A DNA stretch of 63,924 nt, filler included, from Malassezia furfur (Eukaryota): NCBI GenBank assembly GCA_052055015.1. It is 4 parts of 4 records of this genome, joined end to end, with 100 filler letters (N's around TTAATTAATTAA, not from the genome) between each part and the next. Parts side by side here need not be neighbours in the genome. Positions count along the whole stretch, not along the records: positions 1 to 16,543 come from JBQJIT010000246.1; positions 16,644 to 33,159 come from JBQJIT010000247.1; positions 33,260 to 49,728 come from JBQJIT010000248.1; positions 49,829 to 63,924 come from JBQJIT010000293.1. One strand, written 5' to 3'. The notes beneath the pieces are model-generated. The model saw only the letters and a program-made list of their open reading frames with translations, was not told the origin of the DNA and did not search any database. This document shows, in pieces, positions 1-62,949 of this stretch. Numbering within the stretch: position 1 is the first letter of the stretch; every line of letters begins with the position of its first letter. The translations under genes and the position numbers were made by a program.

Positions 1-1999
1 CGGCGGCCGCGTGCCGCGCGGCGCCCGCGAGCAGGCCGAGCGTCTGCCGCAGCCCCTCAACGAGTGCCCACGCGTGCGCCGGCGCAAACGCAACGTGCGC
101 GCCGCTCGCAAGGCGCGTGGCAAACGGCACCGTACTCGCATCCGTGCGCGCCCGCACAAGCTGGCGGTGCAACGCCGCGAGTTCGAGCAGGAGCGTGGCG
201 CGGCGGAAGACGGGCGCGTCGCGCGGCAGCTCGAGCGACACGGCGCACGTGCACAGCACCAGCAGCTGCGACAGCGTCGGCGCGTCGCCGAGCTGCAGCG
301 CGTCAGCGGCTACGTGGAGGATACGCGGCAGCGCGTCCTGCAGTGTGGCATGGGGGCGCGCCCAGACGGCCACGTCGGTGCAGCTCGCGTGGCGCAGCGT
401 GGCGAGTGCCACAAGGCGCCCGGCACATGTCTCAAACGGCGCATGCGGCAGCGGCAGCGCCCAGCATGCCACGGCGCCGCTCGGATCCAGCATCGCGCAG
501 GCCACGGCGCCACTCGGCGACACGGCGAGTGGCGAGCGCCGCAGCGCGTCGGGCGGCAGAGGCGTGCCGAGCGGCGTAAGCGCGAGGCTCTCGGGAGCAA
601 TGGTCGCCCACCTCTCGTCATTGCCGTGCACGGCCGTCGCATACACGCCGAGCGCGTGCGGGACGAGCATCGTGACACAGCACGCCTCGGCCCAAGCCTG
701 GGCGCGCGGGACGAGCGTCGGGGTGCGGGGCGCATGCACGTCGTCGTCGGCCGCGTCCACGGGGCGGTGCACGGCCCAGGCCACGAGCTGCGTGCCGCCG
801 TGCGCGTCGGAATGCGCAGCACCATCCAGCGCGAGCCACAACTCGAGCGACGCGGCGCGCTGCACCCACGCAAGGTGCGTGAGGCGGGTCTCGGCCGGTG
901 GCGATGCGCCTACACACAGCTCAGCGGTGGACGTCGGAACACCCGCAAGAGGCTGCACGGTAAGGAACGACATCTCGCCGTCCAGCTCCAGCTGGAGCTC
1001 GGTGAGGTGCACCATGGCCGGCGCGCCCAGCGCGTCGTCCGTTGCGTACGCGACGAGCACCGCAGCCGCATCGGGCACCGCACACGCGCGCAAATGCGTC
1101 ACGCGCCGCATCCACGCGTCGCAGCGCTCCGCACGCGTATGTTCGAGCGTGGGCGGCGGCGGCAACACACTCGGTTGCGTAAGCCAGCCGTGGTGTGCAC
1201 GGAACGGCGCATTGGTGGACGCGCGTCCAGGCAGGCGGTGCAGCACACTCACCTGCGCGGTGCTCGTGCACAGGACGAGCGCCAGCTCGTCCTGTGCGCG
1301 GTCGAGCGGCAGACTCGGCAAGGCGAGCAGCGCCGCGGGGCCGCACGCGGGCAGGCGCACGGGCTGCGCATGCGGTGCATCGAGTGTCGCATCGAGCGAC
1401 CATGCGCGTGGCGCACCGAGCCAGCACACGTCGACGACATGGCCGTGAAAGACGTGCGTCGTCGGCGCGCTGGCCGCGTCGCAAACCGGTACCGTCTGCC
1501 GGAGCGTCCATGCGTCGCCCGCGCATGTCCAGATGCACACCATACCCTGATCGCTCTGCCACGCAGGGCCCGTAGCAGCGCCCGTGGGTGTGCTCGCATA
1601 GGGCATTGGCGACGTGCCCGCTTCGAGCCCGATCGGCGTCGCTAGGCCGGTGGTGAGCCCCGTGTACGGTGCAAAGTGCGTTGTGCTGCGCAGCGGCGGC
1701 GCGCCCGGCGGAAAGTAGGCAAGCAGGGTATACCCGCACGGGCTGAACGAGACGTACGTTGGGCGAGCAAGCGAGCCGCCCGCGGGGTGCGTGGGTGCAT
1801 ACAGCTTCGCGACCGGTGCCTGGGACAGGTGTGCGGCGCGGCGGAGACTCACGCACGCGCCCTGTGCATCGACCTCGGCGTGCGCCACGACGTTGTGCCG
1901 CGACCAGGCAATTGGGCTGCGTCAGTAGCGCACCTACTCTTCGCACGCGGCGCCCGCCGCGAGCGCCTCGACCCACGCCTCGGCGGGCCGGCAGCGCAT
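1..1999 (-). CDS. MED16: Mediator subunit Med16 (Sin4)-like, 3' end runs off the window; 21-nt intron 1917-1937
   Basis: Not in the ORF track. Manual translation: ATG at 1999, and removing GTAGGTGCGCTACTGACGCAG gives ...[14 protein letters not shown]..., the Med16 N-terminal IAWS motif. The frame stays open to base 1, with YVSFSPCG and [11 protein letters not shown] propeller-like motifs. Confidence 0.65.
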
Positions 2000-2014
2000 A
2001 CGGAAGCGAAGCCG

Positions 2015-2022
2015 TCACGTGA
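2015..2022. promoter_or_regulatory. TCACGTGA E-box in the MED16/UBC7 bidirectional promoter
   Basis: Palindrome in the 48-nt gap between divergent ATGs. The motif recurs in ten other promoters. Confidence 0.6.
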
Positions 2023-2047
2023 AGCACAGGTGTTGGTTTCTTCCACC

Positions 2048-2665
2048 ATGGCAGGTGCACGCAACGCCTCGGCGGCTGTGCGGCGGCTCACGATCGAGTA
2101 CAAGCAGCTCACGAGCGACCCCAACACGCTCTTCCCGGCGGTGGGGCCCATTTCCGAGGACAACTACCTCGAGTGGGAGGCGCTCCTCCCGGGGCCCGAC
2201 GATACCCCGTTCGAGGGCGGCGTGTTTAGTGCACGGCTCTCGTTCCGTACGTTGTTCTAGCGCGCTCACACAGCACCGACGTATCCGCTCGAACCGCCCA
2301 CAATGCGCTTTGACCCGCCCATCTTCCACCCGAACGGTACGCACACCACGCGCTCACCCAGTCTATCCAGACGGCCTCGTGTGCATCTCCATCTTGCACG
2401 CCGCTGGCGACGACCCCAACAGTAGGTGGCATCGCACTGACCCAGTGTATGAGTCGTCCGCGGAGCGCTGGTCCCCGGTGCAATCCATCGAAAAGATTCT
2501 CCTGTCGGTGCTCAGCATGCTGGCCGAGCCCAACGTCGAAAGCGGCGCGAACATCGACGCCTGCGTACGTTTGCCCCCGCCCTCACCCAGAAACTCTACC
2601 GCGACAACCACGCGGCCTACGAAAAGCACATCCGTGACATGGTGCAGCAGCAACTGGGGCTGTAA
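2048..2665 (+). CDS. UBC7: E2 ubiquitin-conjugating enzyme Ubc7/UBE2G; introns 2247-2273, 2337-2361, 2422-2445, 2565-2590
   Basis: The spliced product has [36 protein letters not shown] (catalytic Cys), the Ubc7 acidic loop and [16 protein letters not shown]. Confidence 0.93.
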
Positions 2666-2735
2666 CGATTCGGCGCATACATTCCTACGCCGCCTTTGCC
2701 AAATATGCCATAGGCCTCATTCGCTGCTATGTCTC

Positions 2736-4541
2736 TTAATGCCGCCAGATCTTGACGGTACGGTCGCGCCCACCGCTGGCTACCTTGTCCGCGATGAAGT
2801 CGACACAATACACCTCGTCGTCGTGCCCGGGCAGGTCCTGCTTGATCTTGTACGTCTTGAGACTCCACAGCTTGATCGTCGAGTCCTTCGACGCGGTGGC
2901 CAACATACGACTGTCGCTGCTCCACGCCACGCGGTACACACTCGCGACATGCCCGCGCAGGTTCGCAACGAACTTGCCCGTGCGTGCATCCCACAGCTTG
3001 ACGCTGTTGTCAAACGATGCCGAGGCGATCAGCCGGCCGTCGGGCGAAAAGCACACGTGGTTCACCGTTTTTTGGTGGCCCGTCAGCCGCGCCAGGGGCT
3101 TCTTGGGCGAGGCCGCCGACGCACCAATCTGCGCCGGCCACAGGAAAAGAGTCTGGTCGTCCGAACCACTCACCACCAGCTCGGGGCGCGCGCCGTTCCC
3201 GGTTGCTTCGCGGTGACGCTCCAGCGCCGCTGCCTGGTATGCCGCATCCTCGGCATCGTCAGCGGCACGCAGCGCCTCGACGGACGCGTCCTCACCGAGC
3301 GCCTGGTAACGCTTCCGCATCGCCGCAAGGTACGTGCCTTGCACGTCAAATCCACCCGTACGCAGCACATAGTCGGTGGAGATTGCCAGCGTATTCACCC
3401 AGTGCGCGTGGTCGTTCAGCGAGCGGATCAGCCGACCATCCTGGTCGTTCCATACTTTGATGGTACGGTCCGACGACGCCGTATAAATTGCACCCTCACC
3501 ACCCCAGCGCACCATGTTTACACTCGCCGTGTGGCCGCCCAGGACAAAGTCCACCTGCCGGCGCTCCACGTTCCAAATTCGCACGGTGCCGTCCTTAGAC
3601 GAGCTGGCCAGGCGTGGGTTTCGCGCATTGCGGTGCATGGGCTCCCACGCCAGACTCGTGATCCATTTGGTGTGCCCGCGCAGCAAATGCCCGGGCGGCG
3701 ACGCATGCCGAGCGGCGCGGCGCTCAGCAACCGACATGCGGCCCGTTTCGCCACGCTCGGCGCGGGCTTCATCGACCTGCTTACCGGAGCGTGAGCCCCA
3801 CGCCTTGCGGCCTGTTGCACGCATGTCGAGCGCTTCCCAGATATACACCTGGCCATCCATGCCGCCCGTCGCCAGGCGCCGCTCGCGCGGCTCCCATTCG
3901 GCACACAGCACCCAGCCAGTGTGGCCCTGGAGCGTGTGTAGTGGTGTCTCTGTATCCATGTCCCATAGCCGGCATGTCTTGTCGCCTGCGCCGGTCGCGA
4001 GCAGCTGGCCAGTGGGACTAAACGCGCAACACAGGATCGGCGACGCATGGCCCGACAGTGTGCTCGAGCATCGGCTCACCGCGCGCACACGAAATACGGC
4101 CTGCGGCTCGAACACCACCGTCAGACTGTCTTCGCTGCTGATCCCGAGCCGCTTTGCGACAGCCGACTGCAGCACGCTGTCGTGCAGGCTGTCGGTGATG
4201 TTGATGCGTGTCGGTTGTGTCGGCGCCTCCGGGGAGGGCGCAAGAAGAACATGGAAGGTATAGGGGATTTCCTCATCTTCGTCCTCATCCGCATCCCGTT
4301 TCCGGAGCTGACGGTGCAGTTCGTTGATTAGCTTGCTCATCTCTGCCTGCCCGGCGCTGGACGGAAGGCTGAGCGTCGTGCCGAGCGGCGTGTCGTCCTG
4401 CCCCGACTGGAACTGGACGAGCACAGATGACATGGTCGCATTCAGCTGACCTTTGTTGGCAAGAGCTTCATCTTCGCGCGCGGCTGCCTGCGCGGCGAGC
4501 CGCTGGCGCTTCGCCGAGGGGACCGGCACCTGCGTCGCCAT
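2736..4541 (-). CDS. RSA4: Ribosome assembly WD40 protein Rsa4/Notchless
   Basis: NLE N-terminal domain, the motif [19 protein letters not shown], multiple WD40 repeats and a C-terminal DRTVKIWRH. Start placed at MATQVP. Confidence 0.93.
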
Positions 4542-4621
4542 GGAAGCCAAGCCAACTTTTTTTGTGTGGAGAGCCCACGTGACGGAAGAAATTTTGGGTG
4601 CCGCAAACGTGCTTAGGGACC

Positions 4622-6080
4622 ATGAGCGCAGCGGCCGAGAATGCCGGTCGCCGTGCCGTGTACAGGGTAGGTGTGCCTTCTCACCCCAGAGCTCTCTCCT
4701 GTCGCACGATGACGCATTTGAGCGACTCTTGTCGCTGATTCCCGCCAAGTTTTACGTCCCGGTGGACGAAGAGCACATGGATACCAAATACCAGAAGAAC
4801 AAGCACACCAAGAGCCAAAAACAGCAAGAGGCCGAGGAGCGCAAGAACAAGCTGCAGGCGGCCAAGCGAGCCAAGGTTCGTCTTTCCCCACTTACCCAGC
4901 TCGACCCCGACAATGTGAAGAGTGTAAAGGAAATTCAGCAGGACCGCCGTCGTCGACTGGAAGACGGCATCGAGCTCGAATTCGATGCGGAAGACGACGA
5001 CGAGAACACCGATGATGCCGAAGATGACGGCTTGGACGACTATGAAGACGATGACGATGATGCGGAGTCGACTGGGAACGGCGCGGCCGGTCCCCGTCGC
5101 GATGAGGATGACGAGGAGGAGGAAGACGACGACGACAACAAGCCCACAGAGGCACAGCTGAACGGTCAGACCACGGCTGCTGGTGTAGCCAACCGTCGTG
5201 CGACGGTGGCTGAACTGCGCGAGCGCCTGCACAACAAAATTGAGATGCTGCATCGGAAACGGAATCCGAGCGACACGCCGACGGACGATACGGTGCCTAG
5301 CACCAAGCAGGAGCTTATGGAGGAGCGCAGGCGGCAGCGTGGCGAGATGCGTGACCGCCGTCGTCGCGAGCGGAAAGAGGCACGTCGGCAGGCCAAGGAC
5401 CAATCCGCGTCCAAAGACGGCGGGCGTGCCAAGGCGGACGTGTCGGGCTCCAGCCGCCAGGCAGGCTTGCTGGTGAATGATGCCACAAACCCTGAGCGTG
5501 TGGCACCCAAGAAGCCCGAGGTAGAGTCGCGCATGAGCTTCAGCCACGTCGACTTCGGACCGGACACGCCGCGTAAGAACAAGTACGCACTACCCAACGA
5601 CCCCAAGGCCGCCCTTGCAATGCTCGAGGCACGGAAACGCAAGGAAGAGAATCGCGTGCAAAAGCAGGTGGAGCGCGGCCAGGACGAGGATCAAGTGCGC
5701 GAGGCCGCGGAGGAGGCTGAGCGTTGGAACAAGGCGATCGCCGCCGCGGAGGGCGTGCGCATCCGTGACAATGAGCACCTGCTGAAGCAGACGCTTAAGC
5801 GCCGCGAAAAGTCCAAGGCCAAGAGCAGCAAAGCATGGTGCGTGAGACTGACTCACATTGCAGGAACGACCGGCGCCGCGCCGAGCAGGAAGCACAGGCC
5901 GCGAAGCAAAAGAAGCGTATGGAGAACATTGCTGCGCGACGGGAGAACAAGCGTTCGCCCGGTAAGTCTACGACCAAGTCTACCAAATCGGCCAAAGCCC
6001 GACCTGGCTTTGAAGGCAACAGCCGCTCCTTTGGCAGCGCGCCGAGCCGCAAAGGCGGCGCGCGCCCGGCGAAACGGTAG
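4622..6080 (+). CDS. RRP14: 60S biogenesis factor Rrp14/SURF6; three short introns (23, 24, 26 nt)
   Basis: N-terminal AFERLLSLIPAKFY and KRAKLDPDN, SURF6 domain (AEGVRIRDNEHLLKQTLKRREKSKAKSSKAW) and C-terminal KRMENIAAR...RPGFEG. Confidence 0.9.
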
Positions 6081-6126
6081 TTCGGCCGAGATAGATGCAC
6101 ACACCTTGTCCCCCACCGCGTTGTTG

Positions 6127-6511
6127 ATGAGCGCGACGGCGGACGACGGCGCGCCGGGTGCCGACTTTGTGAATCCGTACGAGGGCAACCGGAATTTGTC
6201 GCCCAATGAGCAGGCGCTGCTGGGCGAGTATGCGCGACTTGCGCAGACGCTACGGAGGGTACGAACGACAAGCACTAACGCAGGTCGCCGCACTGAGCAC
6301 ACAGTTGAGCGCGAGCACGACGCATGCCAATGTGCTGAACGATTTGCGCATTGTTGAGCGCAAGATGGGCCTTGTGCTGACGCTCTTCAAGGCGAGTGTG
6401 TGGGCCATTGTGGTACAGCAGTCGGACGACCAAGATGAGGCGGAGTGGGAAGAATTAGGCGAGCAGTACGCTCACATGGCCATCCCCGAAGAAGACGAGC
6501 CACTAGAGTGA
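6127..6511 (+). CDS. DAD3: DASH/Dam1 kinetochore complex subunit Dad3; one 25-nt intron
   Basis: Spliced product NPYEGNRNLSPNEQALLGEYARLA...LRIVERKMGLVLTLFKASVW matches the Dad3 signature. Confidence 0.88.
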
Positions 6512-6682
6512 TGGCTAGGCGTGTGACGTAGTCCCTGTATTTGTATGTGTCCTTGGCTGCTCGTGCGGTGCTCGGCCTTCTGCCGACGCGTCGCGTCGCC
6601 CCACCGGGCGGTGACGCACACGCCACGTGGCCCTAGCAGGGTTCCACCTTTCAACGTTCGTCCGGCAGTGCGCCAACACACG

Positions 6683-8311
6683 ATGCCGCGGCTGGAAGTA
6701 AAAGTGGGCCCGGACCGGTTCCATATGGAGCCGGCGCACCTGAACGACTACCAACACCCGAATGAGATCAACTCGCCGTACTTTTGTGGGCGTGTGCTCG
6801 TGCGCATCATTAACGCGCCGGGTGCGGAGCAGGGCGAGCCGGGCCGCGAATACTTCGCAGAGCGCACACGAAAATTCTGCATCCAGATTGAGGGCCGCTT
6901 CCGCCAAGAATGGTCGGGCGACGACATCCTGTTCGGTACCGACTTCGACAAATTTGTGCCGTTCCCCCGTGCGCCCTTCAATGCTGGCATGCATGTCGCT
7001 CGTTTGATTGACCCTTGCACCTTTTACGAAGAACACCCGCCTTCGGGTCGGCCATACATTATGTCGCCCTACTTGGCATGCATGAACGTCTTCTGTGCGT
7101 GGCCCGCACCCGACCGCATCGAGGACGCGGTCATTGTGTACCACGACACGCACCACGAAGACAAGGCGAAGTACACCACTAACCCTTGCACCGAGGCCCA
7201 CAAGAATGAGGGAGACGTTGTGCCCGTCGAGCGCCTTGACCACTCCGACTCGCCCGCCACCGAAAAGAAGCACGGGTGGTTCTCCAACTTGATCCACTCC
7301 TCGCGCGACGACCGCGTCGTGGACAACTACTGGCGCTTTGTGGGCTTCCGGACGGACCCGAAGCTGGCGCGCTACCTGCAGTCGATGCCGCCGTCGGAAC
7401 TCGCCGCAAAACCAGCCGTTTCCATGCCCGCAGCCGTGCCGCGCGGGGTGCAGGCGTCCGCACCCGCGCCGTCGCTGACAGCGCCCACGCCCGTGGCCGC
7501 GCCGAGGCCTGTGGTGGCCCCCAGGGCGACGACGCCCGTATCAGTGTCGGGCATGACGCAGGTGGTGACGCCACGCGCGACGGTGACCCAGGCGCACACC
7601 GTCTCGGCGCCACCGACGACCACCTCGTCGCCGTCGCCCATTGCGCCGGCAGCGCCGCAACGTACCGGTACGCCGTCGGTTGGCTCGCGCATCGCCTCCA
7701 AGTCGCACCGCCTGTGGCACGGCATCGACAAGAACATGCTGGTATCACTCGGATCGAGCAACAAATTATCTGGGTCCACGGTCGACCGCAAGCACATGGA
7801 CCGGCCCGAGACACCGCGCTTGCCCGAATTCACCTCGAGCACGTTGCAGCACGATGCCGACTGGTCGGACCCGTCACGGCAGACCGACTCGCCGGTGTCG
7901 ATGTACGCCGAGACGAACCTGGTGCAGTCGATGAACAACGTTAACCTGTCCGGCATGGAGCGTTCCGTCGAGCAGCAGCTGGGACCCTGGCGCTTCTCAG
8001 ACCCGGGCGCAGACATGATCGAGGACAATGCGTTTGTTTTCGTGGACAAGAGCGTGTCGGTTCCCGAGCGTCGCAAGCATTTCGCCAACACCAAAAACCG
8101 GAAGGACTTCAAGTACGACCCGAATGTGGTGTACGGAGCTTCGTTCTTTTCTAATCTCATGGATTTCAATACATTTGACCTGGCCATCGGCCCGGTTCGC
8201 ATCAATGTCTCGCCGTACTTCAAGGAGATGCCGATCCGCTACTCGCTCCGTGCCAAGCACGACGAGGAAATCGTGTTCTGTGCCATCTCCTTCCAGCTCG
8301 TTGACGATTAG
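6683..8311 (+). CDS. DUF1769-family conserved fungal protein with a low-complexity insert
   Basis: YFCGRVLVRI, YFAERTRKFCIQIEGRF, DILFGTDFD, RRKHF and PIRYSLR motifs recalled from the DUF1769 family. Confidence 0.7.
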   Translation: MPRLEVKVGPDRFHMEPAHLNDYQHPNEINSPYFCGRVLVRIINAPGAEQGEPGREYFAERTRKFCIQIEGRFRQEWSGDDILFGTDFDKFVPFPRAPFNAGMHVARLIDPCTFYEEHPPSGRPYIMSPYLACMNVFCAWPAPDRIEDAVIVYHDTHHEDKAKYTTNPCTEAHKNEGDVVPVERLDHSDSPATEKKHGWFSNLIHSSRDDRVVDNYWRFVGFRTDPKLARYLQSMPPSELAAKPAVSMPAAVPRGVQASAPAPSLTAPTPVAAPRPVVAPRATTPVSVSGMTQVVTPRATVTQAHTVSAPPTTTSSPSPIAPAAPQRTGTPSVGSRIASKSHRLWHGIDKNMLVSLGSSNKLSGSTVDRKHMDRPETPRLPEFTSSTLQHDADWSDPSRQTDSPVSMYAETNLVQSMNNVNLSGMERSVEQQLGPWRFSDPGADMIEDNAFVFVDKSVSVPERRKHFANTKNRKDFKYDPNVVYGASFFSNLMDFNTFDLAIGPVRINVSPYFKEMPIRYSLRAKHDEEIVFCAISFQLVDD

Positions 8312-8381
8312 GACATCACGCCTACATGGCCCAAATGGCATAGCGCAGACAGTATATACGTGGGTCTAACAGCTGTTCATG

Positions 8382-10069
8382 CTACGTAAGACCCGTGTTC
8401 GGAGACAGCGTGTCGGTCGGCGGCGTCACCTCCGCGACTGGTATCGCGGCCGTATTGACCGGGGATGCACGGCTGGATGCCAAGGAGCCCGGCGTGCCAG
8501 GTGCCCCCTGGCTTGCGTCATCCGATTCCGCCTCGATACCGAGCAGCTGGTCGACATACCACCCGCCTTCCGCGCCGGGGAACTGGTATACATGACTCTC
8601 GTCCACGCGCTTGGGGAGCGCGTCGTCCGCACACACATCGTCCCAGCCGAGTTTGTGGCGCAGATACTGCACAATACCGTCCGAGTCGCCCAGCAGCATC
8701 ACATCCATCGCCATGTGGGTGATGGGCGTTCGATTGATCAGCACCACTGGCACACGCGGGGGCAGATGCGACAGCAGGTCGGACACGGGTGCGACTTTGA
8801 GCGACGTACCCATTACCAGGACGAGGTCCACCTCGTCGCGGTCGGCAAACACGCATCGGTCAAAGTCATCCGGGAGCTTTTCGCCGAAAAAGGTAATGTC
8901 CGGCTTGAGGATCCCGTACGCAAGCTCCGAGTCGTCTTCGTCGGACGCTTCGTCCTCGTCCCACTGCGCAGCCTTCTTACGCCGCTTGGCATTCCGTGCA
9001 GCATCACGCGCCGCGCGCCGCTCTGTACACCGCGGGCACTGGGGGACGCGTCGCGCGAGAATATCGTCGCGGATCGCGCTACCGTCCACCTTGTAGCCAC
9101 ACGATGGGTCTGTACACGTCGCCGATGCAAACGAGCCGTGGCACTGCAACACGTTGTGGATGCCCGCTTTCTGCTCTAGCGTATCAATGTTTTGCGAGTA
9201 CATGCGCAGCAGCTTGCCGCGCTTCTCGAGCTCTCGGACAAATTCGTGCGATGGAGAGGGACGGTAGTGCGACGGGTAGATCGAATGGCTGGGCGTCAGT
9301 GCGGGTGCCGACGTACGCAAACGAGAAAAACATGGAAGGGTCGCGCAGAAACACTTCCTTGTCGAACCTGCGTCAGTGCACTCACGTACATATCCGACGG
9401 GTCATCTAGCTGGTACTGGTTCTCGTTGGCGAGGATCGAGTAGATGCCATCCTTGGAGCGGAAGTCGGGGATGCCGCACGACACGGAGATGCCTGCACCG
9501 CAGAGCACAATGATCCGCTTCGATTTTTGCAGCAGCTCGAGGACGTCCTCGAGCGTGTTATATTCTTCCAACTTGCGCCGCTGCCGGAGACTGGGTGAGC
9601 GAGGCACGTACATGCGCGTGAGAACCATTTTGAGCAGCGGAAGAGCCGCATAAGGGTTTTCCTCCGCCTGTGCGAGCATGGAGCGCGGCTGCGTCAGCGA
9701 CAAGACGCACCAACATCACGCCAAATGACAGCAACAGCGGCACAATCTGGTAGTCAGTGGTGGCCAACACACCTTGCTCGGCGTATAAACGACGTGGCGT
9801 CGTAGACACTCTAGCATGCCATGTTCCCGCAGGTCGTTGAGCACCGTGCTGATCTCCTCGCGCGACAGCGGCCCAAACTCGGCCTCACTTGCGTCCTCTG
9901 ACGCGGCCGGCGAGGGTGAGGCGGCAGGTACATCTGCAGCCTCTTCGCGCGCGATTTCCTGCATCATCTCCTCCTCGGCCTCATCTTCGAGCCGGTCCAA
10001 ATCTTCCGAGTCAAGTTCATCGTCCAAGCTCGCGAGCTGCGCGAGCGCCTCCGCCTCCGCCGTGTCCAT
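8382..10069 (-). CDS. SIR2: NAD-dependent histone deacetylase Sir2 (class I sirtuin); five introns of 21-28 nt; start approximate
   Basis: GAGISVSCGIPDFRS, YSQNIDTLE, QCHGSF, zinc-ribbon cysteines, LKPDITFFGE and GTSLKVAPV. Confidence 0.92.
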
Positions 10070-10173
10070 GCCAGGCACGTCCACTCGGTGGTTGGATTTG
10101 TCAGCGGCGTAGCCATGTGGAGTGCGCGCAGGTGGCCCAAGGCCCCAGTAGCACTACCATCGCCACGGAGCGT

Positions 10174-52430: not shown

Positions 52431-54849
52431 TTGGCAACACACGTTCCAGCACCTCGTTGAGCCGCGGCGCAGGCGCTGCCGCATCGGGGTGCAAGGTGCG
52501 CCATAGCGCCGATGACACCGCACCCTCGGGGTCGTCCAGCAGTGTGTACAGCGGCTCGTCGTGCGGCGACGCTGGCGTCGGGCCGACGTCCACCTGCGCA
52601 AGGTGCTCGCCGACTCGCTCGAGCAACTCGAGCAAGCCGCCAGTGAGTGGCCGCACAACGTCCGTCTTGACGTACTCGACCAGCGACGTCGGCAGGGTGT
52701 CGACCCGTGACGGCGCCGGCACCGCTGCACCCTCTTCGTGCTTGGGCAGCGCATCGCCCTCTTCCGAGGTCTCGCGCTTGATCGTGGCGGGCGCCGGCGA
52801 CTCAGGCTCGGACTTCACGGCCGAGGCTCGTGTGACGGGCGCACACGATGCCGCGGCGCCGCCCACAAACTCGGCGATGGAGCGCACAAATGCCATGCCT
52901 TGTACACCACCGTAGACAACCTCCAGCAGACGCTCCGCCTCTTGGGCACCCTGCATCGAGATTTGCAGCGCCGCAGGCAGCTGCCGAAGCGAGGTACGCG
53001 GTACATACTGTGCGGTGCGTGGCAGACCCAGCGAGCTGTACGGCATCACACGTAGATGCTCACGCAGGGCATCGGTCAGATGCGTGCCAGCGACTTGCGC
53101 AAAGGGGCGCAGACCACGCCCATCCGTGGTGGATGCAGCCCACGCGGGGAAATTGGTATACAGCCCGACATCCGCGGCGCCCAGCAGGCGCTGCAAGTGC
53201 GGACGGAAAAACGTCCAGTTTTGCTCGTCGCGCTCCTGCTCCAGCTCACGCTCGCGGCGGTTCAAGCGCAGGCCGGACTGCAGCGGGTCCTGAATCGGCG
53301 GCGGCGGCGCGACCGGCCATACGGGACGCAGCCCCCGCGCCTCGTTTGGCGTTGCGGTGCCTTGCGCAAGGCCCGGGGGCGGCGGTGCACCGGCCACGGC
53401 AAACGGAAGCAGACGGTCCTTGGGCGGTACGCTGGTGCCCTGGAACGTGTGGCTCCAGTTTTCCTCGCTTGGCCCGGGCTGTGCCAGCGTCGCAGCACTC
53501 AGTGGGTCAGGGCGGCCCGGCTGCACGGAGGGAAACACGAAGCTTGCCTCGGCTTGGGGGTTGTTCGCGTTCGGCATGGCGAGCGACATGGGCAGATGCC
53601 GCAGCGACTCGATGCGGGGGCAAACAAGCGCCGCCGGTCCCAGCGCCTGTGCCATGTACTCGTACGTATTCGCGAGTCGTGCGGGGTCGAGCGACCCGTC
53701 GTCCACGTAGGTATAATTCTGCACCGGCAACGCTTCGTCATTTGTCTCGCCCTGGTTCTGGGCCCCGCTTGATTCAGCGAGGAAACTCGGGATCGGGCCG
53801 AGTCGCACCTTGGGTTTTTCCTGCATGCGTGCTGCACACGCACTCTTGCCTGTAAGCGTGTGCGGCGAGACACCGGCGTACGCCAGCGTGCGCCGGAAGA
53901 GGCGTGTCTCGTACGTGTCCGGCACACCGGCCGGCGGTGTTGCTGACCACGGCGTGCTCCGTGCACTGCCGATCCGCACCGTGCGTCGTCCGCCGGACTC
54001 GGATGCATATGGGCTGCCCGGGCCGAGCTCGTCGCCGCCGCCCGCTCCAGCAGACGCATCGCGGCGCGTACGCTCCATCGTCCGCCGCCGCCCACGACGT
54101 GATGCAGTGGGTGCGGGCCGAGGCGGTGCTTCAGCGACAAAGGCATCATCGTCGACCACACTCAGCCCCTCCCGCTCGATGGCTCGAACTCCCCACGTCT
54201 CGAGACGCCGCGCAGCGGTGTGATAAATCGAGGTCGGCGGGTTGAATGTCTGTGCATTTTGCGTGATTAACAAAAAGTCGTGCCGAAAGGTATCCATGTT
54301 TGTATAGTACTGCTCCGCCAGCCGCTTCTCCATGGTGCCGAGATCCATGGGGTGCTTAATGACCTCCCGGTAGCCAGGCACTTCGTCAGCATTGACCGGC
54401 TCGTGGAAGAACTGGTATGGGTCGCGTCTGGGTTAGAAACCATAGACCTACTTTTTAAACGCGGCGAGCAGCGACTCGAGCGCCGCACGCAGAGGTTTTG
54501 CTCGCAGCTGCTTAATCGGCCGCTTGCGCTTCTCACCCACTGCTGGTGCTGATGGCGTGCCAGGCGCCGGAGATGCAGATGGTGTTGTACGGCTAGTCGC
54601 AGGCTGTGCATCGGTATCTGTGCCCTCGTCCAGCGCGGATGTGTCGCGCTTGAGTTTGATCTTGGGCCGCACGCTTGTCTGCGACATCCCGAGTGCCTCG
54701 TTTCCGTCATCACTGGACAGCGCCGCGTCACTGTCTTCGGCACCGGATGCTGCATCCCCTGCCCATGACGGGCTCGATGGCTCATCACGTCCATACTCGT
54801 CGCGGCTGCCGACCGACGACGGCGACGACGGGGTCGCTGCCAGGCTCAT
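52423..54849 (-). CDS. Bromodomain protein (BRD7/BRD9-like); one 24-nt intron
   Basis: KK|RDPYQFFHEPVNADEVPGYREVIKHPMDLGTM...NAQTFNPPTSIYHTAARRL. Confidence 0.8.
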
Positions 54850-54993
54850 CCTCCAGGGATCGAGGCGCGAACACTCGCTTAGTCATCTGCACTTGATCTT
54901 CCAGCCAGCACCATTTGGGGTCTTGCGCGCCTGTCTGTACGCGCGTCGTCCGTGGTAGGGGCGTGTCTGCGACGAAGTAGCCAGGTACGCACA

Positions 54994-56649
54994 ATGGCCT
55001 ACATCGATAAGCCCCGGTTTCATAAACCGGCGCATCCGGCGCGCACCAAACCGCCTGTCAAGGACCCGCTTCTGGAGCCGAGCGCTCAGGTGCCACGCCT
55101 CGCGCTGCGCCGCTCCGCAGCCGTGCCAGATGATGCACCGCCGCTGCAGTCCCATGCACAGGCCGGAATTGAGATGCAAGAGCGTGCTGCCAATGACGAT
55201 GCAGAGCGTGCTCGGCAGCAAAACGAGCAGCTTGCGTGGCTCGACGAAGCACGTGTCGCATTGCACAAGACCCTGCCGTTGCTCGGCGTTCGTGTGCCGG
55301 CGACGCAGGTCAGTGCACTGGCGCGGCATCCAGCCGTAAATGGACTTGTGTTCCGCTCGCGGAGGTCGAAGCACATTAACCCAGACCCGCGTGGAGACGA
55401 CGCAGTACGTGTCCTGCAACTGGGCATCGACGACGCCGCGGCACTCTCGCCTGAGGCCAACGTTGCGATTGCCGAAGTCCAAGGCGAGATTATACCACAC
55501 CCAGTCGAGCTTCCGTACGATTATTGGACGGTCGAGCAGGTGCTCCGTGCCGTGCTGCCTGCCGAGCTCGAAGAGGGCGCCCCCAGCGCGTTTGCCATGG
55601 TCGGCCATCTCGCGCACGTCAACCTGCGCGAAGAATACCTTGCGTACCGTTACTTGATTGGACAAGTCATCCTGGAAAAGACCCCGCGAGTCCGCACGGT
55701 GGTGAACAAGCTTGACTCGATTGAAACCGAGTTTCGTGTATTTGCCATGGAACTGCTGGCCGGTGTCCCTGAATACGAGGCGGAAGTGTCCGAGTCCAAT
55801 TGTGTGTTCCATCTCGACTTCCGCAATGTGTACTGGAACAGCCGTCTTCACACAGAGCATGGGCGCCTCATTGCGCAGTTCCAGCCGTTTCAGGTGCTTG
55901 CCGACGTCATGGCAGGCGTCGGCCCGTTTGCTGTACCGGCTGCCAAAAAGGGCGCGTGGGTGCTGGCGAACGATTTGAACCCCCACTGCTTCGCCAGCTT
56001 GCAAAAGAACAGCACTCGCAATCATGTGGATGCGCACTTGCAAGCGACCTGTCTTGACGGGCGCGAATTCATCCGGCAGTCTGTGCTCACCACATGGAAC
56101 GCCTCCTTCCCGGGAGAGCCAACTGGTGATGAACTACTGAGTGCGCGACAAAAGCGCAAGGAAAAGAGCGCACAGCGGCGTGCACAGCAGCAAGGCACGA
56201 CGCAAGCCGACCCCGCCCCTCAAGCACCTGCCCCGACGACGCCCAAGCCACCGCGGCGTCTGGTGGATCACTTTGTTATGAACCTTCCTGCAACTGCGCT
56301 TGAATTCCTCGATGCGTACCGGGGTCTGTACACGCATCTCGCTTCGCATGTGGGACGTGACGTACTTGAAGCCGAGATCGCGGCACGGAGCACACAGGGC
56401 GACGTGGAACCCCTTCCCATGGTGCATGTGCATTGCTTCACCAAAGACGTCGAGCATGCCGCAGCTGATATTTGCCAGCGCGCCAATGCGGCTTTGGGTC
56501 TGTCCGGTGCCGAACGCCTTGTGCCGCCGGGCGACGAAACGTCGGACCCTACGCCAGATCTCTCGCTGCATCTCGTCCGCTCCGTGGCACCCAGTAAAGA
56601 CATGTATTGTCTTTCTTTCCGTCTTCCCCGTAGCGTATTGTTTGCCTAA
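54994..56649 (+). CDS. TRM5: tRNA (guanine37-N1)-methyltransferase Trm5
   Basis: VGHLAHVNLR, TVVNKLDSI, VYWNSRLHTEH, DVMAGVGPFA, ANDLNP, VMNLPA and VRSVAPSKDMYC. Confidence 0.94.
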   Translation: MAYIDKPRFHKPAHPARTKPPVKDPLLEPSAQVPRLALRRSAAVPDDAPPLQSHAQAGIEMQERAANDDAERARQQNEQLAWLDEARVALHKTLPLLGVRVPATQVSALARHPAVNGLVFRSRRSKHINPDPRGDDAVRVLQLGIDDAAALSPEANVAIAEVQGEIIPHPVELPYDYWTVEQVLRAVLPAELEEGAPSAFAMVGHLAHVNLREEYLAYRYLIGQVILEKTPRVRTVVNKLDSIETEFRVFAMELLAGVPEYEAEVSESNCVFHLDFRNVYWNSRLHTEHGRLIAQFQPFQVLADVMAGVGPFAVPAAKKGAWVLANDLNPHCFASLQKNSTRNHVDAHLQATCLDGREFIRQSVLTTWNASFPGEPTGDELLSARQKRKEKSAQRRAQQQGTTQADPAPQAPAPTTPKPPRRLVDHFVMNLPATALEFLDAYRGLYTHLASHVGRDVLEAEIAARSTQGDVEPLPMVHVHCFTKDVEHAAADICQRANAALGLSGAERLVPPGDETSDPTPDLSLHLVRSVAPSKDMYCLSFRLPRSVLFA

Positions 56650-56660
56650 TCTATCTGGGT

Positions 56661-57175
56661 TTACACTACATCCCGCTCCAGTATACTCCACCGGAAATCC
56701 AAAATGCCTTGCCGCGTGTTGAGGATTTCGGCAATTTCAGCAGGAGGCTCCTCGCCAATTTCGCGTGCACGCTCCCACCGCTCAAGACGGGTCATCCCAG
56801 TGCAAGGGCCGTAATTTCCATTGAGGTCAAATACGCGCAATATACGGTCGATTCGATTGACGCCTTCGCCATGCACTGGGTCAGTATGGCATACGTACCT
56901 GCAGCGCGACCCATCTCTTTCTTCGTCTGTTCCCAAAGCCGATCATATCTTGGTGAATTCACATCCAGCTCTGGCCGACCCTCGGCCAGCTTGAGCAGTT
57001 CTTTGGGATAGTCGCGCTCTTCGGCCTCCGCATTCACCTTCTTGCTTGCCAATTTTGCATCCTTATCGACCGTGTCTGACACTGCCTTTGGTTTCCCTCG
57101 TACAGCAGACGAGGATCGCGCCTTCTGACCAGTCAGACCGAGTGCATTGCCCGTCCTGCGTTTCGTGGCGACCAT
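56661..57175 (-). CDS. POLD4: DNA polymerase delta subunit 4 (p12/Cdm1); one 23-nt intron
   Basis: Spliced ILRVFDLNGNYGPCTGMTRLERWERA...PPAEI. Confidence 0.87.
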
Positions 57176-57345
57176 GTCAGGCGTAGATTCACACGACCCT
57201 GGCCTGGAGATGTTACAGCACGTGATGCAATTGGCCCGTGCGCTCTATGCACTTTTCCCAAGACAGCATCCACCGCCAACAACCCCACATACGATATGGG
57301 ACTGGCATAGGAATCGAATCATATGTTATTTATCTAATAGTACGA

Positions 57346-58524
57346 TTAGTGCTGGCCGTAAGACTTCGAGACGTAGTGACCATTCTCGACAATGACGTTG
57401 GCATCAATCTGGGGCTTCTTGTTCCAAAGACGCTCCAGAATGTCCTTGGTGCCGGCCACGTAGCGGGCCTGCGCATCAAGCGAGGTACCCGAAATGTGGG
57501 GCGTCATCGCATTTCCACCGCCCAGCTCAGGGTTCCACACGTTGCGCATCTTGTGCCACGGGTGGTCCGCAGGCGGCGGCTGCGGGTAGGAAACGTCACC
57601 GCCGTAGCCGTTGAGCTGACCGTCCTCGACAGCCTTGGCGATGTCCTCCTTAACACAAATGGCGCCACGAGCCGTGTTGACAATCCACGCACCCGGCTTC
57701 ATCTTGCTGATAAGCTCCTTATTGAAGAGACCCTTGGTGCCAGCGTGGAGAGGCGCATTGATGGTGATGACATCACAGCGCGACACAAAGTCCTCGAGGT
57801 CCTCGACACGCTTGCAACCAATCTCCTTCTCGGTAGCATCATCAAGCTTGTTGTAGTCATAGTACAGCAGCTCCTTGCAGTCGAAGGGCTTGAGGCGCTG
57901 CAGGATACGACGGCCAATGCGGCCAATACCGAGCGTACCGACCACCTTGTTCTCCACATCGTACGAGTTCATGGCAACCTCGGCGACGTCCCATGTGCCA
58001 TTCACGTACTGGTTGTGCGCAGGCACAAAGTTGCGGACGAGGACCAGGATGGTCATGACAGCGTGCTCGGCGACCGAAGTCACATTCGAGCCGGTCACCT
58101 CGTACACACCAATCTTGCGTGCATTGGCCGCATCTAGGTCGACGTGGTCCGAGCCGACACCAGCAGTCACACAGGCCTTGAGGTCCTTGGCATTTTCGAT
58201 GATCTCCTTAGTGATGTAGGCGGGGTGGAAAGGAGTCGTGATGATAATCGACGCATCAACGGCTTCCTTGGCGAACTCCGAGTTGGGGCCGTCCTTGTCC
58301 GTGGTCACCACAAGGGTGTGACCCTGCTTCTCGATCCACTCACGGAGGCCAAGCTCATTTTCGGCAGAGCCAAGCATCTTGGGCTGGCGCTTGGCGAACT
58401 CGCCGCCAGGATAAAGGACAGCAAGGACCTTGTCCTTGGCGATCGCCGATGAGGCGAACGAACGCGAGAAAGTCGCACGGCTCAGGGCAGAGGCAGCAGG
58501 CTTAGCAGCACGGATCATAACCAT
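57346..58524 (-). CDS. FDH1: NAD-dependent formate dehydrogenase with an N-terminal presequence-like extension
   Basis: [45 protein letters not shown] and [14 protein letters not shown]. Confidence 0.96.
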
Positions 58525-58568
58525 TTTGATGATGGTGGATTGGGGTAGATGGAAGCATTGGCCCCAGC

Positions 58569-58574
58569 TTTATA
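58569..58574 (-). promoter_or_regulatory. Putative TATA box of FDH1
   Basis: TATAAA on the minus strand ~45 nt upstream of the ATG. Confidence 0.5.
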
Positions 58575-58831
58575 GCATATGCCGCGGGTCTCAATTTCGG
58601 GGCGGAATTATCTTGTCCGAAAGTCTGTGCACGAGCCTCCATCCGGGGACGTCCAAAACGACATGCGCACGGTGCCCTGACTTCGCCCAATGTCCGAAAA
58701 TGAGGTCATGTTGCAGGACGTGTCAATAGTTAGTCAGCAAAATAGAGCCCGCCGACCCGCCAGCACAACACCGCGTCGGTTTTTCGGACATTGAACGCAT
58801 CACATCCGATCCTCCACACGGAGCCTGGGCC

Positions 58832-61006
58832 ATGGAATCGGAACGTGCGAACGCGGAGGCGAGTGCACTGACCAGCCTCGCGCCGTCAGGGGGCGGAGCA
58901 CGGTCCGAAATGGTCGAAGAGACTGGAACTGTCCCTGATGCCAATCGGCTAGCCCCGAGCTCCGCGGAACGGCGTGAACATTCGCGCCGATTCTCCAACA
59001 TCCATACGCGCAACTTGTCGGCCTTCTTTCCGCAGCCAGGAACCGCGGCCGAGTTCGAGTACCATGCTTCGCAGGCAAGTACGCGCTCTCCCTCGCCTGT
59101 TAATGTTGCACCGGCTGGCGAGGTGCCGCAAGAATCGCCCACCCATAAGCAAAAACGCGATGCGCGCCAAATCCGGCGCGCAAGCTACCTCATGACAGAC
59201 CAAACAGGCAACGTGAATGTTGCGCGACGCATGCCGTCGCAGCTACCTTCTTGTACGTGGCTTTTCTCACACAGTGGCCACCGACCGCGGCGACCTCCTT
59301 TCTCCGGATCCCATGGCGACACGCAAAATGTCCGACGGACGTGCTTTGTCGGGAGCATGGTCGCATCTGCCGTCCCGGCCGGCGTCGGGAGTGTGGCCCA
59401 GCGATGTTTTCCAAAGCTCGCCCAAGCGTGCGCCTTCGTACAACTACGCTACACAATCACAACCGCAGGCAATGCCCGTCACCTTTGCGATGCGCCCGCT
59501 GGTGCTGTTCTGTGCCGCGTACACAGCACTAGGCGCCGGTCTATGGGTCATGGGTTTGGTCCGCGACTCGCTCGCGCTCGTCGGCCTTGGCTTCCTTGTG
59601 GTGTTTGACGGGCTGAGCGTGCTGAGTACGGTGTGGATGCAGGCGCTCGAAGTCGCACGCCGGAAGCGTCTGGACGCTGAGCAAGGTGATGCGTCAGCAG
59701 GCGCTGCAGTATCGGCTCCCGTGAATCTCAAGCGGCCATTTGGGTATGTGGTTTTGACTGACACAGCTTGCGCCGTCTCGAGACGCTGTCAGATTTCTCG
59801 CTTATGGTGTTCCTGATGTTTTCAGGGATCTACATGTGCAAGGAAAATGTCGAGCATGCGCTTCTCGCCGCAAGCCTCCCGCACGAGGAGGATCGCGAGG
59901 GCACTCAGCTCCCAGTGGTCTTGCTCTTGCTCACCACGGTTCTCATCGTGTTTACCAACGTGGTGCTTCGGAACCACGCACGCATCGCCGCTGCTTGCGC
60001 GACGAGCATCGACAATGGCGTTGGTCTCGATGGAACCAACGCGCGTCAGTCGCGGCACGCGCGGCACACATCCGTGCTGCCCATGCCGACGTTGGCGCGT
60101 GGGCCGCTCTACGATGCGCTGACCAATCCATTCAGCCTGATGATGCTCTTCTTCTCGACCGGCCTCTTCATGGCCGCCCTTTTCCTTCCTCCACAGCAAA
60201 TGGCTTCACTCGACAAAGTGCTGGCGGGTCTTGAAGGCGCAACGATGCTGTACCTCTCAGCATGCGCACTTTCTCCCCTGTCCAAGGTGCTGCTCCAAGC
60301 GGCCCCCTCACCCAAGGCGCCGCAACTCACCCAACTCAATCGCGCGCTCGGCATCATCGAGTCCCATCCCGCTGTGGCTCGCATTGCGAGTGCAAAAGTA
60401 TGGCAGCTTACGCTACCGTCCTTGTCGTATACAAAAGCGGGCGCCGGCACCGATGGCCGCCCGGGTCTGGCCGGGATCATGTCCATGAAACAGGGCGCCA
60501 AGTCGGCCTCCTTGGTCGTCACTCTCCATGTACTCGCTAAGGCGGACACGTCGGCAGACGTATGTGCCGAGTTGACGCGCTATACATGGCAGCAATGTGC
60601 GCCGATCCTTGGCGCGAGCCGGCAGGTGACCGCTGGCGAACACTTGCGCGGTGCGCTTGTCGCCGGCGAGCTGACGGTGGAGGTGACGCGCGAAGGACAG
60701 CATGCACCTTCGCACGCGATGCACGGCTGTGGACATGACCACGGGCATGATCATCACCATGATCACCACGACCATGACCACCATGACCACCATGACCACG
60801 GTCATCACGATCACGGCCACGACCACGGTCACCACGACCATGCTCACCACGATCATCCGCATGTCTATGTGCAAGAAGCGTCTGAGCCCCACGTCGGCCA
60901 TGTGCACAGCCATGCGCACACGGGCCATGTCCACGCCCATGACCATGCGGGACACCACCACGAGCACGTTGCTTCGCCCTCGTCGGTGATTCATGTCCCG
61001 CTTTAA
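58832..61006 (+). CDS. ZRG17: Cation diffusion facilitator Zrg17-like zinc transporter with a long His-rich tail; introns of 22 and 23 nt
   Basis: Removing GTACGTGGCTTTTCTCACACAG and GTATGTGGTTTTGACTGACACAG joins three ORFs. Motifs LGFLVVFD, KRPFGLRRLETL, KENVEHALL and NPFSLM. Confidence 0.75.
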
Positions 61007-61057
61007 CGTACATAGCTTATACCCACGTTGCAAATATGTGATTCATATGGTATATGT

Positions 61058-61694
61058 CTAGTCCATACGGCACTTGAGTGTCCGCTCGATCACCTTCTCC
61101 GGGGTGATGATGCGCACAATCACACCCATGCCGGACAGCGCATCACGCTCAATGCCACCCAGCATGGTCTGCGAGATGGTCTCGAACAAGTCCTCGGGCT
61201 CCAGATCCGGCTCCCAGAGACCCTCGGCCATACCGAACAGGCGGTCACTCGCCGTGCCGCTCACGACAAAGTCCTTGGCGAAGTTGAGGCACCCGATCAG
61301 GTCCGAGGCCGCGATAAACGGCTCATTCTTGCTGTTCAGCCCGGCCACGACGGGCTCAATGAAGTAGGGCCCGAATCGCCGCTCGTACAGCGTCGAGCTC
61401 ATGAGGTGCGCGAACGTCTCCGGCTCAATTTCGCGGTCCTCCTTCATACGGTACATGTTTAGCCGATAACGGAACTTCTCACGCAGCGTGATCAAGTCCG
61501 TCGCGAGACCAGGCAGACCAACGTAGGTCTTGTCGGTCACCTTGAACACCTTGTCGAAGCTCGTCGAGAGCAGCAGCGCCTGGTTGCCGATGCGCAGGTC
61601 CGTTGCGATGGCCACGCAGTTCTTGCCACGCATGGCAATCACGCTGCCACCATTGTATTCCATAATACTCACTGGGTTAGGCCATCCACCTACT
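61058..61694 (-). CDS. PUP3: 20S proteasome beta-3 subunit; intron 61672-61693 splits the ATG
   Basis: MSIMEYNGGSVIAMRGKNCVAIA, RRFGPYFIEPVVAG, DLIGC and LKCRMD. Confidence 0.95.
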
Positions 61695-61791
61695 CTTGTC
61701 TCCGCCACGACCGTCGTCGTCAGTCAACGCGCATGCGCCATGCCGATCACTTAGATCACGTGCGCGCACCGACACCCTCCACGCTAGCACC

Positions 61792-62949
61792 ATGAAGGAG
61801 CTCACGCGCAAGATGGTGGCCGATGGTACGTGCATAGCCCCTCACAACAGTGGCCGTATTCGCCGTTTCTCAGGTGGCATTCTTCTATGCCTTCAAAGTG
61901 CGTGGCTCACTCGACTAACGCAGTACGTGATGGCATCGCTCGACCCCAACCGGCAAAAGCAGCAGGACGCCAAGAAGGTCTCGGACAACAAACTGGGCAA
62001 GCTGGGGCTTCGCTCGCGCGGCGTTAAGCTGAACGAGTATGAGGAACAGATTGCTACCGAACTCATCCTTCCCGATGATATTCCTGTCACCTTTGAATCG
62101 ATTGGTGGGTTGGACAACATCATCGCGAGCTTGCAGGAGAGCGTCATTGCTCCCCTGTGTTACCCCCAGCTGTTCAACAGCGCAAGCGGCTTGCTGGGTG
62201 CACCCAAGGGTGTGCTCTTGTATGGACCACCGGGCACCGGTAAGACGATGTTGGCTAAGGCGCTGGCGAAGGAGAGCGGCGCCACCTTTATCAATATGCA
62301 CGTCTCCACCTTGACCAATAAATGGTTCGGCGAGTCCAACAAGCTCGTGTCCGCGCTGTTTTCGCTGGCACGCAAGCTCCAGCCGAGTATTGTGTTCATT
62401 GATGAGATTGACAGCTTCCTGCGTGAGCGTGCGTCGGGTGATCACGAAGTCATGGCCATGATGAAGGCCGAATTCATGACCCTATGGGACGGCTTGACGT
62501 CTTCGACGGACCGCATCATGGTGCTGGGCGCGACCAACCGCCCGGCGGACATCGACGCGGCTATTCTGCGCCGTATGCCTAAGCGCTATGCTGTGCGCCT
62601 CCCTGACCAGGCGCAGCGCAAGAAGATTCTGTCCATTATGTTGGCAAACGTGCCGTGCCATTCGTCGTTTGATCTGGATGCATTGGTGCGCAAGACGGAG
62701 GGGTACAGCGGCAGCGACTTGCGCGAGCTGTGCCGCGCAGCCGCGATGGTGCCTGTGCGTGAAGTGTTGCGCAGTCGCAGCGGTCGGGAGCATGTTGAGC
62801 GTGCGCGGAAAAACCCGACGGGCGATGGAGAAGCGGCGCACGGTGCTGACCTCGCGATGAGTGTGCGGCCGCTGCGCAACAGCGACTTTTTCCAAAACGA
62901 TAGCGCAACGCCCCTCCATGTGGATACAGAGCCAGATGCACTGGACTAA
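61792..62949 (+). CDS. MSP1: Mitochondrial/peroxisomal AAA ATPase Msp1/ATAD1; introns of 25 and 26 nt
   Basis: Spliced N-terminal TM (VAVFAVSQVAFFYAFKYV), GPPGTGKT, KWFGES, FIDEID, KAEFMTLWDGL and ILRRMPKR. Confidence 0.93.
   Translation: MKELTRKMVADGTCIAPHNSGRIRRFSGGILLCLQSAWLTRLTQYVMASLDPNRQKQQDAKKVSDNKLGKLGLRSRGVKLNEYEEQIATELILPDDIPVTFESIGGLDNIIASLQESVIAPLCYPQLFNSASGLLGAPKGVLLYGPPGTGKTMLAKALAKESGATFINMHVSTLTNKWFGESNKLVSALFSLARKLQPSIVFIDEIDSFLRERASGDHEVMAMMKAEFMTLWDGLTSSTDRIMVLGATNRPADIDAAILRRMPKRYAVRLPDQAQRKKILSIMLANVPCHSSFDLDALVRKTEGYSGSDLRELCRAAAMVPVREVLRSRSGREHVERARKNPTGDGEAAHGADLAMSVRPLRNSDFFQNDSATPLHVDTEPDALD

Follow-up and report, generated by a model that had tools for sequence, protein, structure and literature searches.

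We analyzed a 63,924-nucleotide (nt) stretch of the Malassezia furfur assembly GCA_052055015.1 (hereafter the window), made of four contig sequences whose joins are artificial (runs of N at 16544-16643, 33160-33259, and 49729-49828, with the core TTAATTAATTAA). Judging from sequence comparisons, M. furfur genes very probably carry very short U2-type spliceosomal introns with a floor at 21 nt. A preliminary description had proposed more than 40 introns in this window, mostly of 21-28 nt, and this estimate holds: our curated list counts 53 (including four with less common donors), with a median of 23 nt and a mean of 25.3 nt, 47/53 measuring 21-28 nt, 6/53 measuring 36-41 nt, and 0/53 falling below 21 nt. 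As for the origin of the window, two M. furfur records at NCBI share 100% and 97.8% identity, in aligned columns, with its spliced BZW1 protein, which pairs with one of them in a phylogenetic tree (support 100/97), and the best matches of the large BZW1 exon are from Malassezia.

Apart from BZW1, SIR2, COQ7, and GCN5, the genes bear putative names assigned from their translations. Along the first contig (C246, positions 1-16543; intron lengths in nt follow the coordinates), a MED16-like gene on the minus strand holds one intron at 1917-1937 (21), which contributes two in-frame stops if kept and whose removal gives an open reading frame (ORF) of 659 amino acids (aa) versus 535; a plus-strand UBC7-like gene (ORF 171 aa) holds four, all frame-consistent, at 2247-2273 (27), 2337-2361 (25), 2422-2445 (24), and 2565-2590 (26); a plus-strand RRP14/SURF6-like gene, whose frame is open once three introns are removed, holds them at 4667-4689 (23), 4876-4899 (24, with a GTTCGT donor), and 5838-5863 (26); a small plus-strand gene of 119 aa holds one at 6259-6283 (25); and SIR2, on the minus strand, holds five at 9747-9772 (26), 9689-9710 (22), 9591-9611 (21), 9368-9389 (22), and 9289-9316 (28). 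Further along come a lipoyl-domain gene (minus; 17331-17353, 23), an ELP6-like gene (plus; 19507-19529, 23), COQ7 (minus; 20693-20713, 21, and 20467-20492, 26), and a mitochondrial carrier gene (plus; ORF 298 aa) with introns at 25992-26032 (41), 26362-26402 (41), 26557-26584 (28), and 26732-26768 (37).

The third part of the window carries GCN5 (plus; 33448-33472, 25, and 34449-34469, 21), an EBP-like gene (minus; 35989-36013, 25; 35704-35725, 22; 35643-35667, 25; 35547-35586, 40; and 35518-35539, 22), a YAE1-like gene (minus; 36683-36706, 24), a BET4-like gene (plus; 37033-37055, 23; 37690-37712, 23; and 37872-37892, 21), a carnitine acyltransferase gene (minus; 39978-40001, 24; 39835-39855, 21; 38653-38675, 23; and 38324-38346, 23), the W2-domain gene BZW1, on contig C248 and single-copy in the assembly (minus; 44451-44471, 21; 44381-44402, 22; and 44214-44235, 22; the first two flank an exon of 48 nt), and a RING-CH-like gene (plus; 46394-46431, 38). 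The fourth part carries a tafazzin-like gene (plus; ORF 311 aa; 51424-51445, 22; 51578-51599, 22; 51619-51641, 23; and 51747-51772, 26), a bromodomain gene (minus; 54428-54451, 24), a POLD4-like gene (minus; 56876-56898, 23), a zinc transporter-like gene (plus; 59253-59274, 22, and 59744-59766, 23), a proteasome beta-3 gene (minus; 61672-61693, 22), an MSP1-like gene (plus; 61826-61850, 25, and 61898-61923, 26), and an ATP phosphoribosyltransferase gene (minus; 63369-63404, 36). Outside the 53 counted, 63417-63474 is probably a 58-nt intron with a distant or odd branch. It is in two genes that the longest introns of the window cluster: that of the mitochondrial carrier (41, 41, 28, and 37 nt) and the histidine gene, encoding ATP phosphoribosyltransferase (36 and ~58 nt). 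Two micro-exons also stand out, one of 7 nt in the EBP-like gene (35540-35546, between the 40- and 22-nt introns) and one of 19 nt in the tafazzin-like gene (51600-51618, between 22- and 23-nt introns).

Five independent sequence tests agree with the earlier proposal that these segments are tiny spliceosomal introns lacking a pyrimidine tract. A strict motif scan of the window returned 43 matches of 21-28 nt, when 30 Markov resamples predict 0.6. When 50 window candidates were submitted to a codon-model frame test, 37 were consistent, 5 inconsistent, and 8 undecided; among the inconsistent ones, 4667-4689 was accepted on the ground that its removal leaves an open frame, two BZW1 candidates were accepted on homology, 63369-63404 fails because its upstream exon is just 12 nt, and the motif match 53015-53067 was dropped as a false, coding look-alike; the motif match 62573-62610 is another coding look-alike. 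Over 580 kb, with top donors and a model trained outside the window, the same test found 34/35 candidates of 21 nt, 48/50 of 22 nt, and 39/43 of 23 nt consistent. The 21-nt introns singled out beforehand in MED16, SIR2, COQ7 (all three on the minus strand), and GCN5 each run from GT through a branch to CAG, and in the last three excision restores conserved proteins: retained, the SIR2 21-mer adds precisely 7 gap columns to the alignment with 48/57 homologues, that of GCN5 is an exact 7-residue insertion relative to solved bromodomains, and that of COQ7, read through, is an insertion relative to human COQ7, with 10 gap columns around the 7-codon intron. The SIR2 junctions, in gene order, are free of gaps in 35/55, 23/55, 55/58, 57/58, and 49/56 homologues, the first three carnitine acyltransferase junctions in 73/78, 77/80, and 73/81 of the segments aligned at 80 homologous loci (the fourth in 3/8), and the N-terminus of spliced BZW1 can be aligned with M. 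psittaci and M. japonica records with no gap and with smut fungi with almost none.

The assembly (13.68 Mb in 1856 contigs) is of a hybrid type, with two subgenomes ~89% alike and many loci duplicated at 86-90% identity, and hybrid M. furfur assemblies with duplicated loci have already been published (PMC4634964). A second-subgenome copy of window DNA was found for 61779-63924 (contig C429), where the MSP1-like introns measure 23 and 26 nt with their signals kept and the 36-nt ATP phosphoribosyltransferase intron is also kept; DNA searches with 1-16543, 33260-49728, and 49829-61778 found no such copy, owing either to loss of heterozygosity or to a collapsed assembly. Contig C133, considered as a counterpart of the window, was rejected. 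Because the copy found covers 61779-63924 only, the two subgenomes were compared mainly on other contigs: ten aligned pairs (121,759 columns) held 103 candidates, one of which was removed as gapped, leaving 102 intron pairs. All signals are kept in 93/102 pairs and fail in 9/102. Mismatches affect G1, T2, and G5 of the donor in 1, 2, and 2 pairs, the branch T and A in 0 and 3, and the two bases of the terminal AG in 0 and 1, versus 22/102 at the free position before the branch A. The spacers diverge by 29.8% against 9.2% for the flanks, and indels number 46 in 2699 intron columns against 1 in 6120 flank columns. Thirty pairs differ in length, and none falls below 21 nt, when a symmetric null would give a mean of 5.0 (P(0)=0.004). 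The GT (or GC)...AG ends are thus under selection, and contig pair C29/C341 keeps a 21-nt GC-AG intron in both subgenomes.

These comparisons bear on two explanations that would do away with introns altogether. If the segments were coding sequence, or had arisen through misassembly or insertion of pseudogenes, the few motif matches that are coding look-alikes and the 9/102 pairs with failed signals would find a ready account; however, both subgenomes carry the segments with conserved ends, their positions are common to a distant relative, and their removal restores conserved proteins exactly, so that this explanation is extremely improbable and, on sequence grounds, refuted for the bulk of them. 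Excision by a non-spliceosomal route, of the tRNA or Ire1 type, is suggested by size only and deserves hardly any credence, since a conserved GT, branch A, and AG around a free interior form a spliceosomal pattern and the spliceosomal RNAs and proteins are present.

An unlikely, if more serious, proposal is that the introns are real and inefficiently spliced, with common retention and with in-frame 21- and 24-mers serving as tolerated insertions of 7-8 residues. It is consistent with the lack of an in-frame stop in 34/41 candidates of 21 nt, with a mild enrichment of stops in introns whose length is a multiple of three (42/109 vs 55/203, p=0.04), and with the median efficiency of ~25% cited for microsporidian short introns (PMC13644364). 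The splice signals are nonetheless strongly conserved between subgenomes, 203/312 genome-scale candidates would shift the frame if retained, UPF1 is present, and 99% of curated M. sympodialis introns are RNA-supported, which shows splicing rather than its efficiency. A Paramecium-like shortage of stop-free introns of such lengths is weak at best (the same p=0.04) and open to false positives.

The length distribution was drawn up on a genome-scale set covering 682 kb (one copy per subgenome pair), where 399 frame-consistent clusters yielded 312 high-confidence candidates, or ~0.5 per kb. The resulting histogram, a check proposed beforehand, has a median of 24 nt and a mean of 25.5 nt, with 273 candidates at 30 nt or less and one below 21 nt, whose sequence reads as an open coding frame. 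The common layout is a donor (GTACGT 169, GTATGT 51, GTGCGT 35), a short free spacer, a branch (A/G)CTNAY with N free (CTGAC 101, CTCAC 83, CTAAC 51, CTTAC 29; 48 end in T), and YAG. CTCAC is indeed frequent (83/312), as had been pointed out, but CTGAC is commoner (101/312). Between the branch and YAG, T makes up 14.5% and pyrimidines 49.6%.

Two distances appear to set the floor. In a table made over the 682 kb without frame or tie-break choices, the branch A falls at position 14 in 0 cases, at 15 in 2, at 16 in 65, and at 17 in 60, and the tail beyond it measures 3 nt in 9 cases, 4 nt in 1, and 5 nt in 186, with controls at ~1. A later YAG is available in 6/9 of the tail-3 cases, the 9 cases with a branch A at position 12 are consistent with nested donors lying 4 nt further in, and the position-16 floor persists for tails of 5, 6, 7, and 8 nt. 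With a branch A no earlier than position 16 and a tail of at least 5 nt, the minimum intron is therefore 21 nt. The suggestion that some introns might measure 19 nt is not supported: four 19-nt and one 20-nt alternatives drawn from nested donors break the frame, as in the ELP6-like and POLD4-like genes, and the 19-nt alternative of the RRP14/SURF6-like gene runs into stops, while 51424-51442, which stops at the first AG of CAGCAG, is in frame but has a 3-nt tail, a spacing nearly unsupported elsewhere.

A comparison within the genus is offered by L114, a metagenome locus that branches early in the genus and is syntenic with window positions 33260-44485, where 18 window introns in six genes could be compared. 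Eleven of the 18 lie at the same codon position in L114 (three of them read by eye), where the introns measure 37-48 nt; the paired lengths (window/L114, nt) are 21/46, 22/48, 23/38, 23/39, 21/37, 24/40, 22/40, 25/45, 40/38, 22/38, and 21/38. Shared positions include the second GCN5 intron (38 nt in L114), four of the EBP-like gene, the YAE1-like intron (~40 nt), two of the BET4-like gene, and the fourth of the carnitine acyltransferase gene; the 7-nt micro-exon is also kept. Seven of the 18 have no counterpart in L114, which in turn has four introns that the window lacks; gene order is kept, and this amounts to marked intron turnover inside one genus.

The assembly encodes the major spliceosome. 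The preliminary description had recommended inspecting the U2 branch-pairing region and the U2AF/SF1 complement: U2 small nuclear RNA (snRNA) has an intact GUAGUA, with which the branch A motif pairs, U6 an intact ACAGAGA, and U4, U5, U2AF1, SF1, Slu7, UPF1, and two copies of U1-70K were found, while U2AF2 is altered. An altered U2 branch-pairing region as the cause of CTCAC was rejected on the canonical GUAGUA, as was a loss of Slu7 or of nonsense-mediated decay, predicted from the short tail, on the presence of Slu7 and UPF1. The U2AF2 match lies below the TIGR01642 cut-off, on a contig that begins inside the gene, and aligns to the human protein, reading ESRAVLEF where the latter has KNFAFLEF and RGIAFCEF where it has KGYAFCEY. 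In the best 120 of 577 homologues, position 5 of RNP1 in the first RNA recognition motif (RRM1) is Phe in 2/19 top matches (six named Malassezia among them) vs 100/101 others, and position 3 of RNP1 in RRM2 is Phe in 0/19 (Tyr in 4) vs 99/101; the erosion extends to the early-branching M. cuniculi. The RNP1 aromatics of U2AF2 stack on the uridines of the tract, and their loss across the genus matches the absence of a pyrimidine tract; the typical fungal 3' splice site, with a U-rich tract and intact U2AF2 aromatics, is not what we find here. The spliceosome adapted to minimal introns that had been anticipated is thus partly borne out, in U2AF2 but not in the pairing motifs of U2 and U6, which are ordinary. 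Rfam found no match anywhere in the window. AACGGCC occurs upstream of U2 (L001), U4 (L230, L231), U5 (L228, L229), and U6 (L066), and with the TATA box that lies 36-67 nt downstream in U2, U4, and U5, it is likely an snRNA promoter element. At +4, the dominant donor GTACGT does not match canonical U1 or U6.

As for how such introns are recognized, under intron definition U1/U6 would hold donor bases 1-6 and U2 bases ~12-17, a linker of ~5 nt between donor and branch contacts would be the steric minimum, the acceptor would be the first YAG at least 5 nt beyond the branch A, and SF1 and U2AF1 would recognize the adjacent branch and AG, linked by a tract-independent U2AF2. Ancestral introns of ~40 nt would have been eroded by deletion in a compact genome until they piled up at the floor, in keeping with the model of deletion up to a functional minimum in PMC10245619. 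Two accounts of the floor deserve weighing. Quite possibly, if short of an even chance, the M. furfur spliceosome is derived and measures introns by two rulers of its own, with a tract-independent U2AF2 and perhaps an altered U1 that fits GUACGU and is missed by Rfam; within the genus, the floor would then have dropped from the high thirties to 21 nt. Alternatively, and somewhat doubtfully, the 16-nt branch floor may be the limit of any standard fungal spliceosome given a strong donor and branch, with no special M. furfur adaptation and a U2AF2 that decayed for want of a tract. Canonical U2/U6 motifs, the presence of every factor sought except U1 RNA, and the U2AF2 erosion shared by M. cuniculi all fit such a general limit, but in L114, where the signals are the same, introns have stayed at 36-48 nt, as if the limit were specific to a lineage, and Stentor places its branch at 10-11 with changed branching factors, so that the floor varies by lineage.

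Several points weigh against the main reading, that of U2-type introns shrunk to a floor of 21 nt. The case for introns is wholly comparative, built on frame, homology, subgenomes, and a relative; the branch A is predicted from motif and conservation; and the candidates are motif-defined, so that introns with odd signals, possibly shorter, are under-counted. A 17-nt candidate on contig C2 is frame-consistent when its 21-nt alternative is not, and so is a 19-nt candidate on contig C5 whose longer form is inconsistent, each possibly at a gene end. The absence of 7/18 window introns from L114 means that not all are demonstrably old, the deletion bias is assumed, and the U2AF2 change, being genus-wide, does not alone explain the 21-nt floor. 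Finally, no U1 snRNA was found: Rfam, run on 41/173 candidates, gave no match, two further Rfam checks of candidates supported none, and five pattern searches of the 1856-contig assembly (5' motif, 70K loop, and the snRNA promoter motif AACGGC...TATA included) did not recover it, this hunt yielding only U2, U4, U5, or chance matches. At locus L223, ACGTACC follows a TATA box, but Rfam lends it no support.

Short introns are already known in the genus. In M. sympodialis, 5350 curated introns average 30 bp, 99% being RNA-supported, and automated annotation had given an inflated average of 50-65 bp (PMC5389616, Zhu et al. 2017); a genus review mentions "very short introns" (PMC7426719), M. restricta was annotated with a minimum intron of 20/15 (PMC6473144), and the annotated mean in M. 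globosa is 76-79 (PMC4634964). M. furfur introns are shorter than those of M. sympodialis (median 23-24 and mean 25.5 nt against a mean of 30 bp), for which the available text of PMC5389616 gives no minimum, branch geometry, or spliceosome analysis, the length distribution being in its figure S8. Malassezia intron length is absent from the examined text of PMC8476143 and PMC3560662, the main text of 10.1101/283549 does not mention Malassezia, and the sections examined of PMC13644364 list ciliates, microsporidia, and dicyemids as the exceptions under 30 nt, with no mention of Malassezia. Among the top matches of our literature searches, mostly outside subscription journals, we found nothing on the M. 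furfur floor, its branch geometry, or Malassezia U2AF2; what we did not find in the literature is thus the 21-nt floor, the two distance rules, and the U2AF2 change.

The size had been described as near the eukaryotic lower limit, yet 21 nt lies well above the record of 15-17 nt, and the bulk of M. furfur introns is not below 20 nt as in Stentor or Mikrocytos. The 15-16-nt introns of Stentor coeruleus (PMC9505925) share the 5-nt tail after the branch A and canonical U2/U6, but they are AU-rich and of fixed length, with a weak branch consensus at 10-11, whereas those of M. furfur have a branch at 16 or beyond, 56% GC, strong signals, and lengths that spread out into a tail. The myxobolid and dicyemid introns described in PMC13644364 (median 22-27 bp) are alike in size, in lacking a pyrimidine tract, and in the presence of U2 and U2AF, but their signals are reduced to GTa...AG, when M. 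furfur keeps a six-base donor and a five-base branch. Type B introns of Trichomonas (23-25 nt; PMC12316389) resemble ours in size and in a branch fused to the acceptor, but they number a few dozen in an intron-poor genome and have a T-rich interior, against ~0.5 per kb genome-wide in M. furfur. The deletion-to-minimum model proposed for the 16-17-nt introns of Mikrocytos mackini (PMC10245619) fits the shape of the M. furfur distribution; that obligate parasite has a highly reduced spliceosome, while M. furfur keeps the factors sought and is culturable and editable.

With regard to annotation, the mis-annotation anticipated from such sizes is real for BZW1 but not universal. The spliced N-terminus is matched by 2/15 named Malassezia BZW1 records and not by the other 13/15; the two from M. 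furfur miss the second exon, of 16 residues, as well as five residues downstream of the third intron, as if the three introns of 21, 22, and 22 nt were two of 91 and 37 nt. The M. brasiliensis SIR2 record, on the other hand, is right at all five junctions. Public Malassezia protein sets thus drop small exons and residues around such introns, with consequences for proteomics, gene-loss claims, and work on allergens and drug targets in a main skin fungus.

For asking what sets the smallest spliceable intron, the known extremes are for the most part organisms that cannot be cultured or that resist editing. M. furfur is culturable, has CRISPR tools (10.1101/638429), and combines full splice signals with relatives whose introns are nearly twice as long; by extrapolation from 312 candidates in 682 kb, it would carry thousands of such introns, of most of which hybrids carry two alleles. 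If its spliceosome were indeed derived, the proteins that set the minimum length could be mapped within the genus and tested by gene editing.

Besides its introns, the window holds a 485-bp intergenic segment of 19.8% GC at 45651-46135, and no other GC trough in the 28 sequences compared comes near it in depth; M. furfur centromere cores measure 168-721 bp with 15-27% GC (PMC7025860), and by length and GC this segment is a probable centromere core. At 47700-47990, three diverged copies of ~105 nt repeat the end of the RING-CH-like gene together with its 3' flank.

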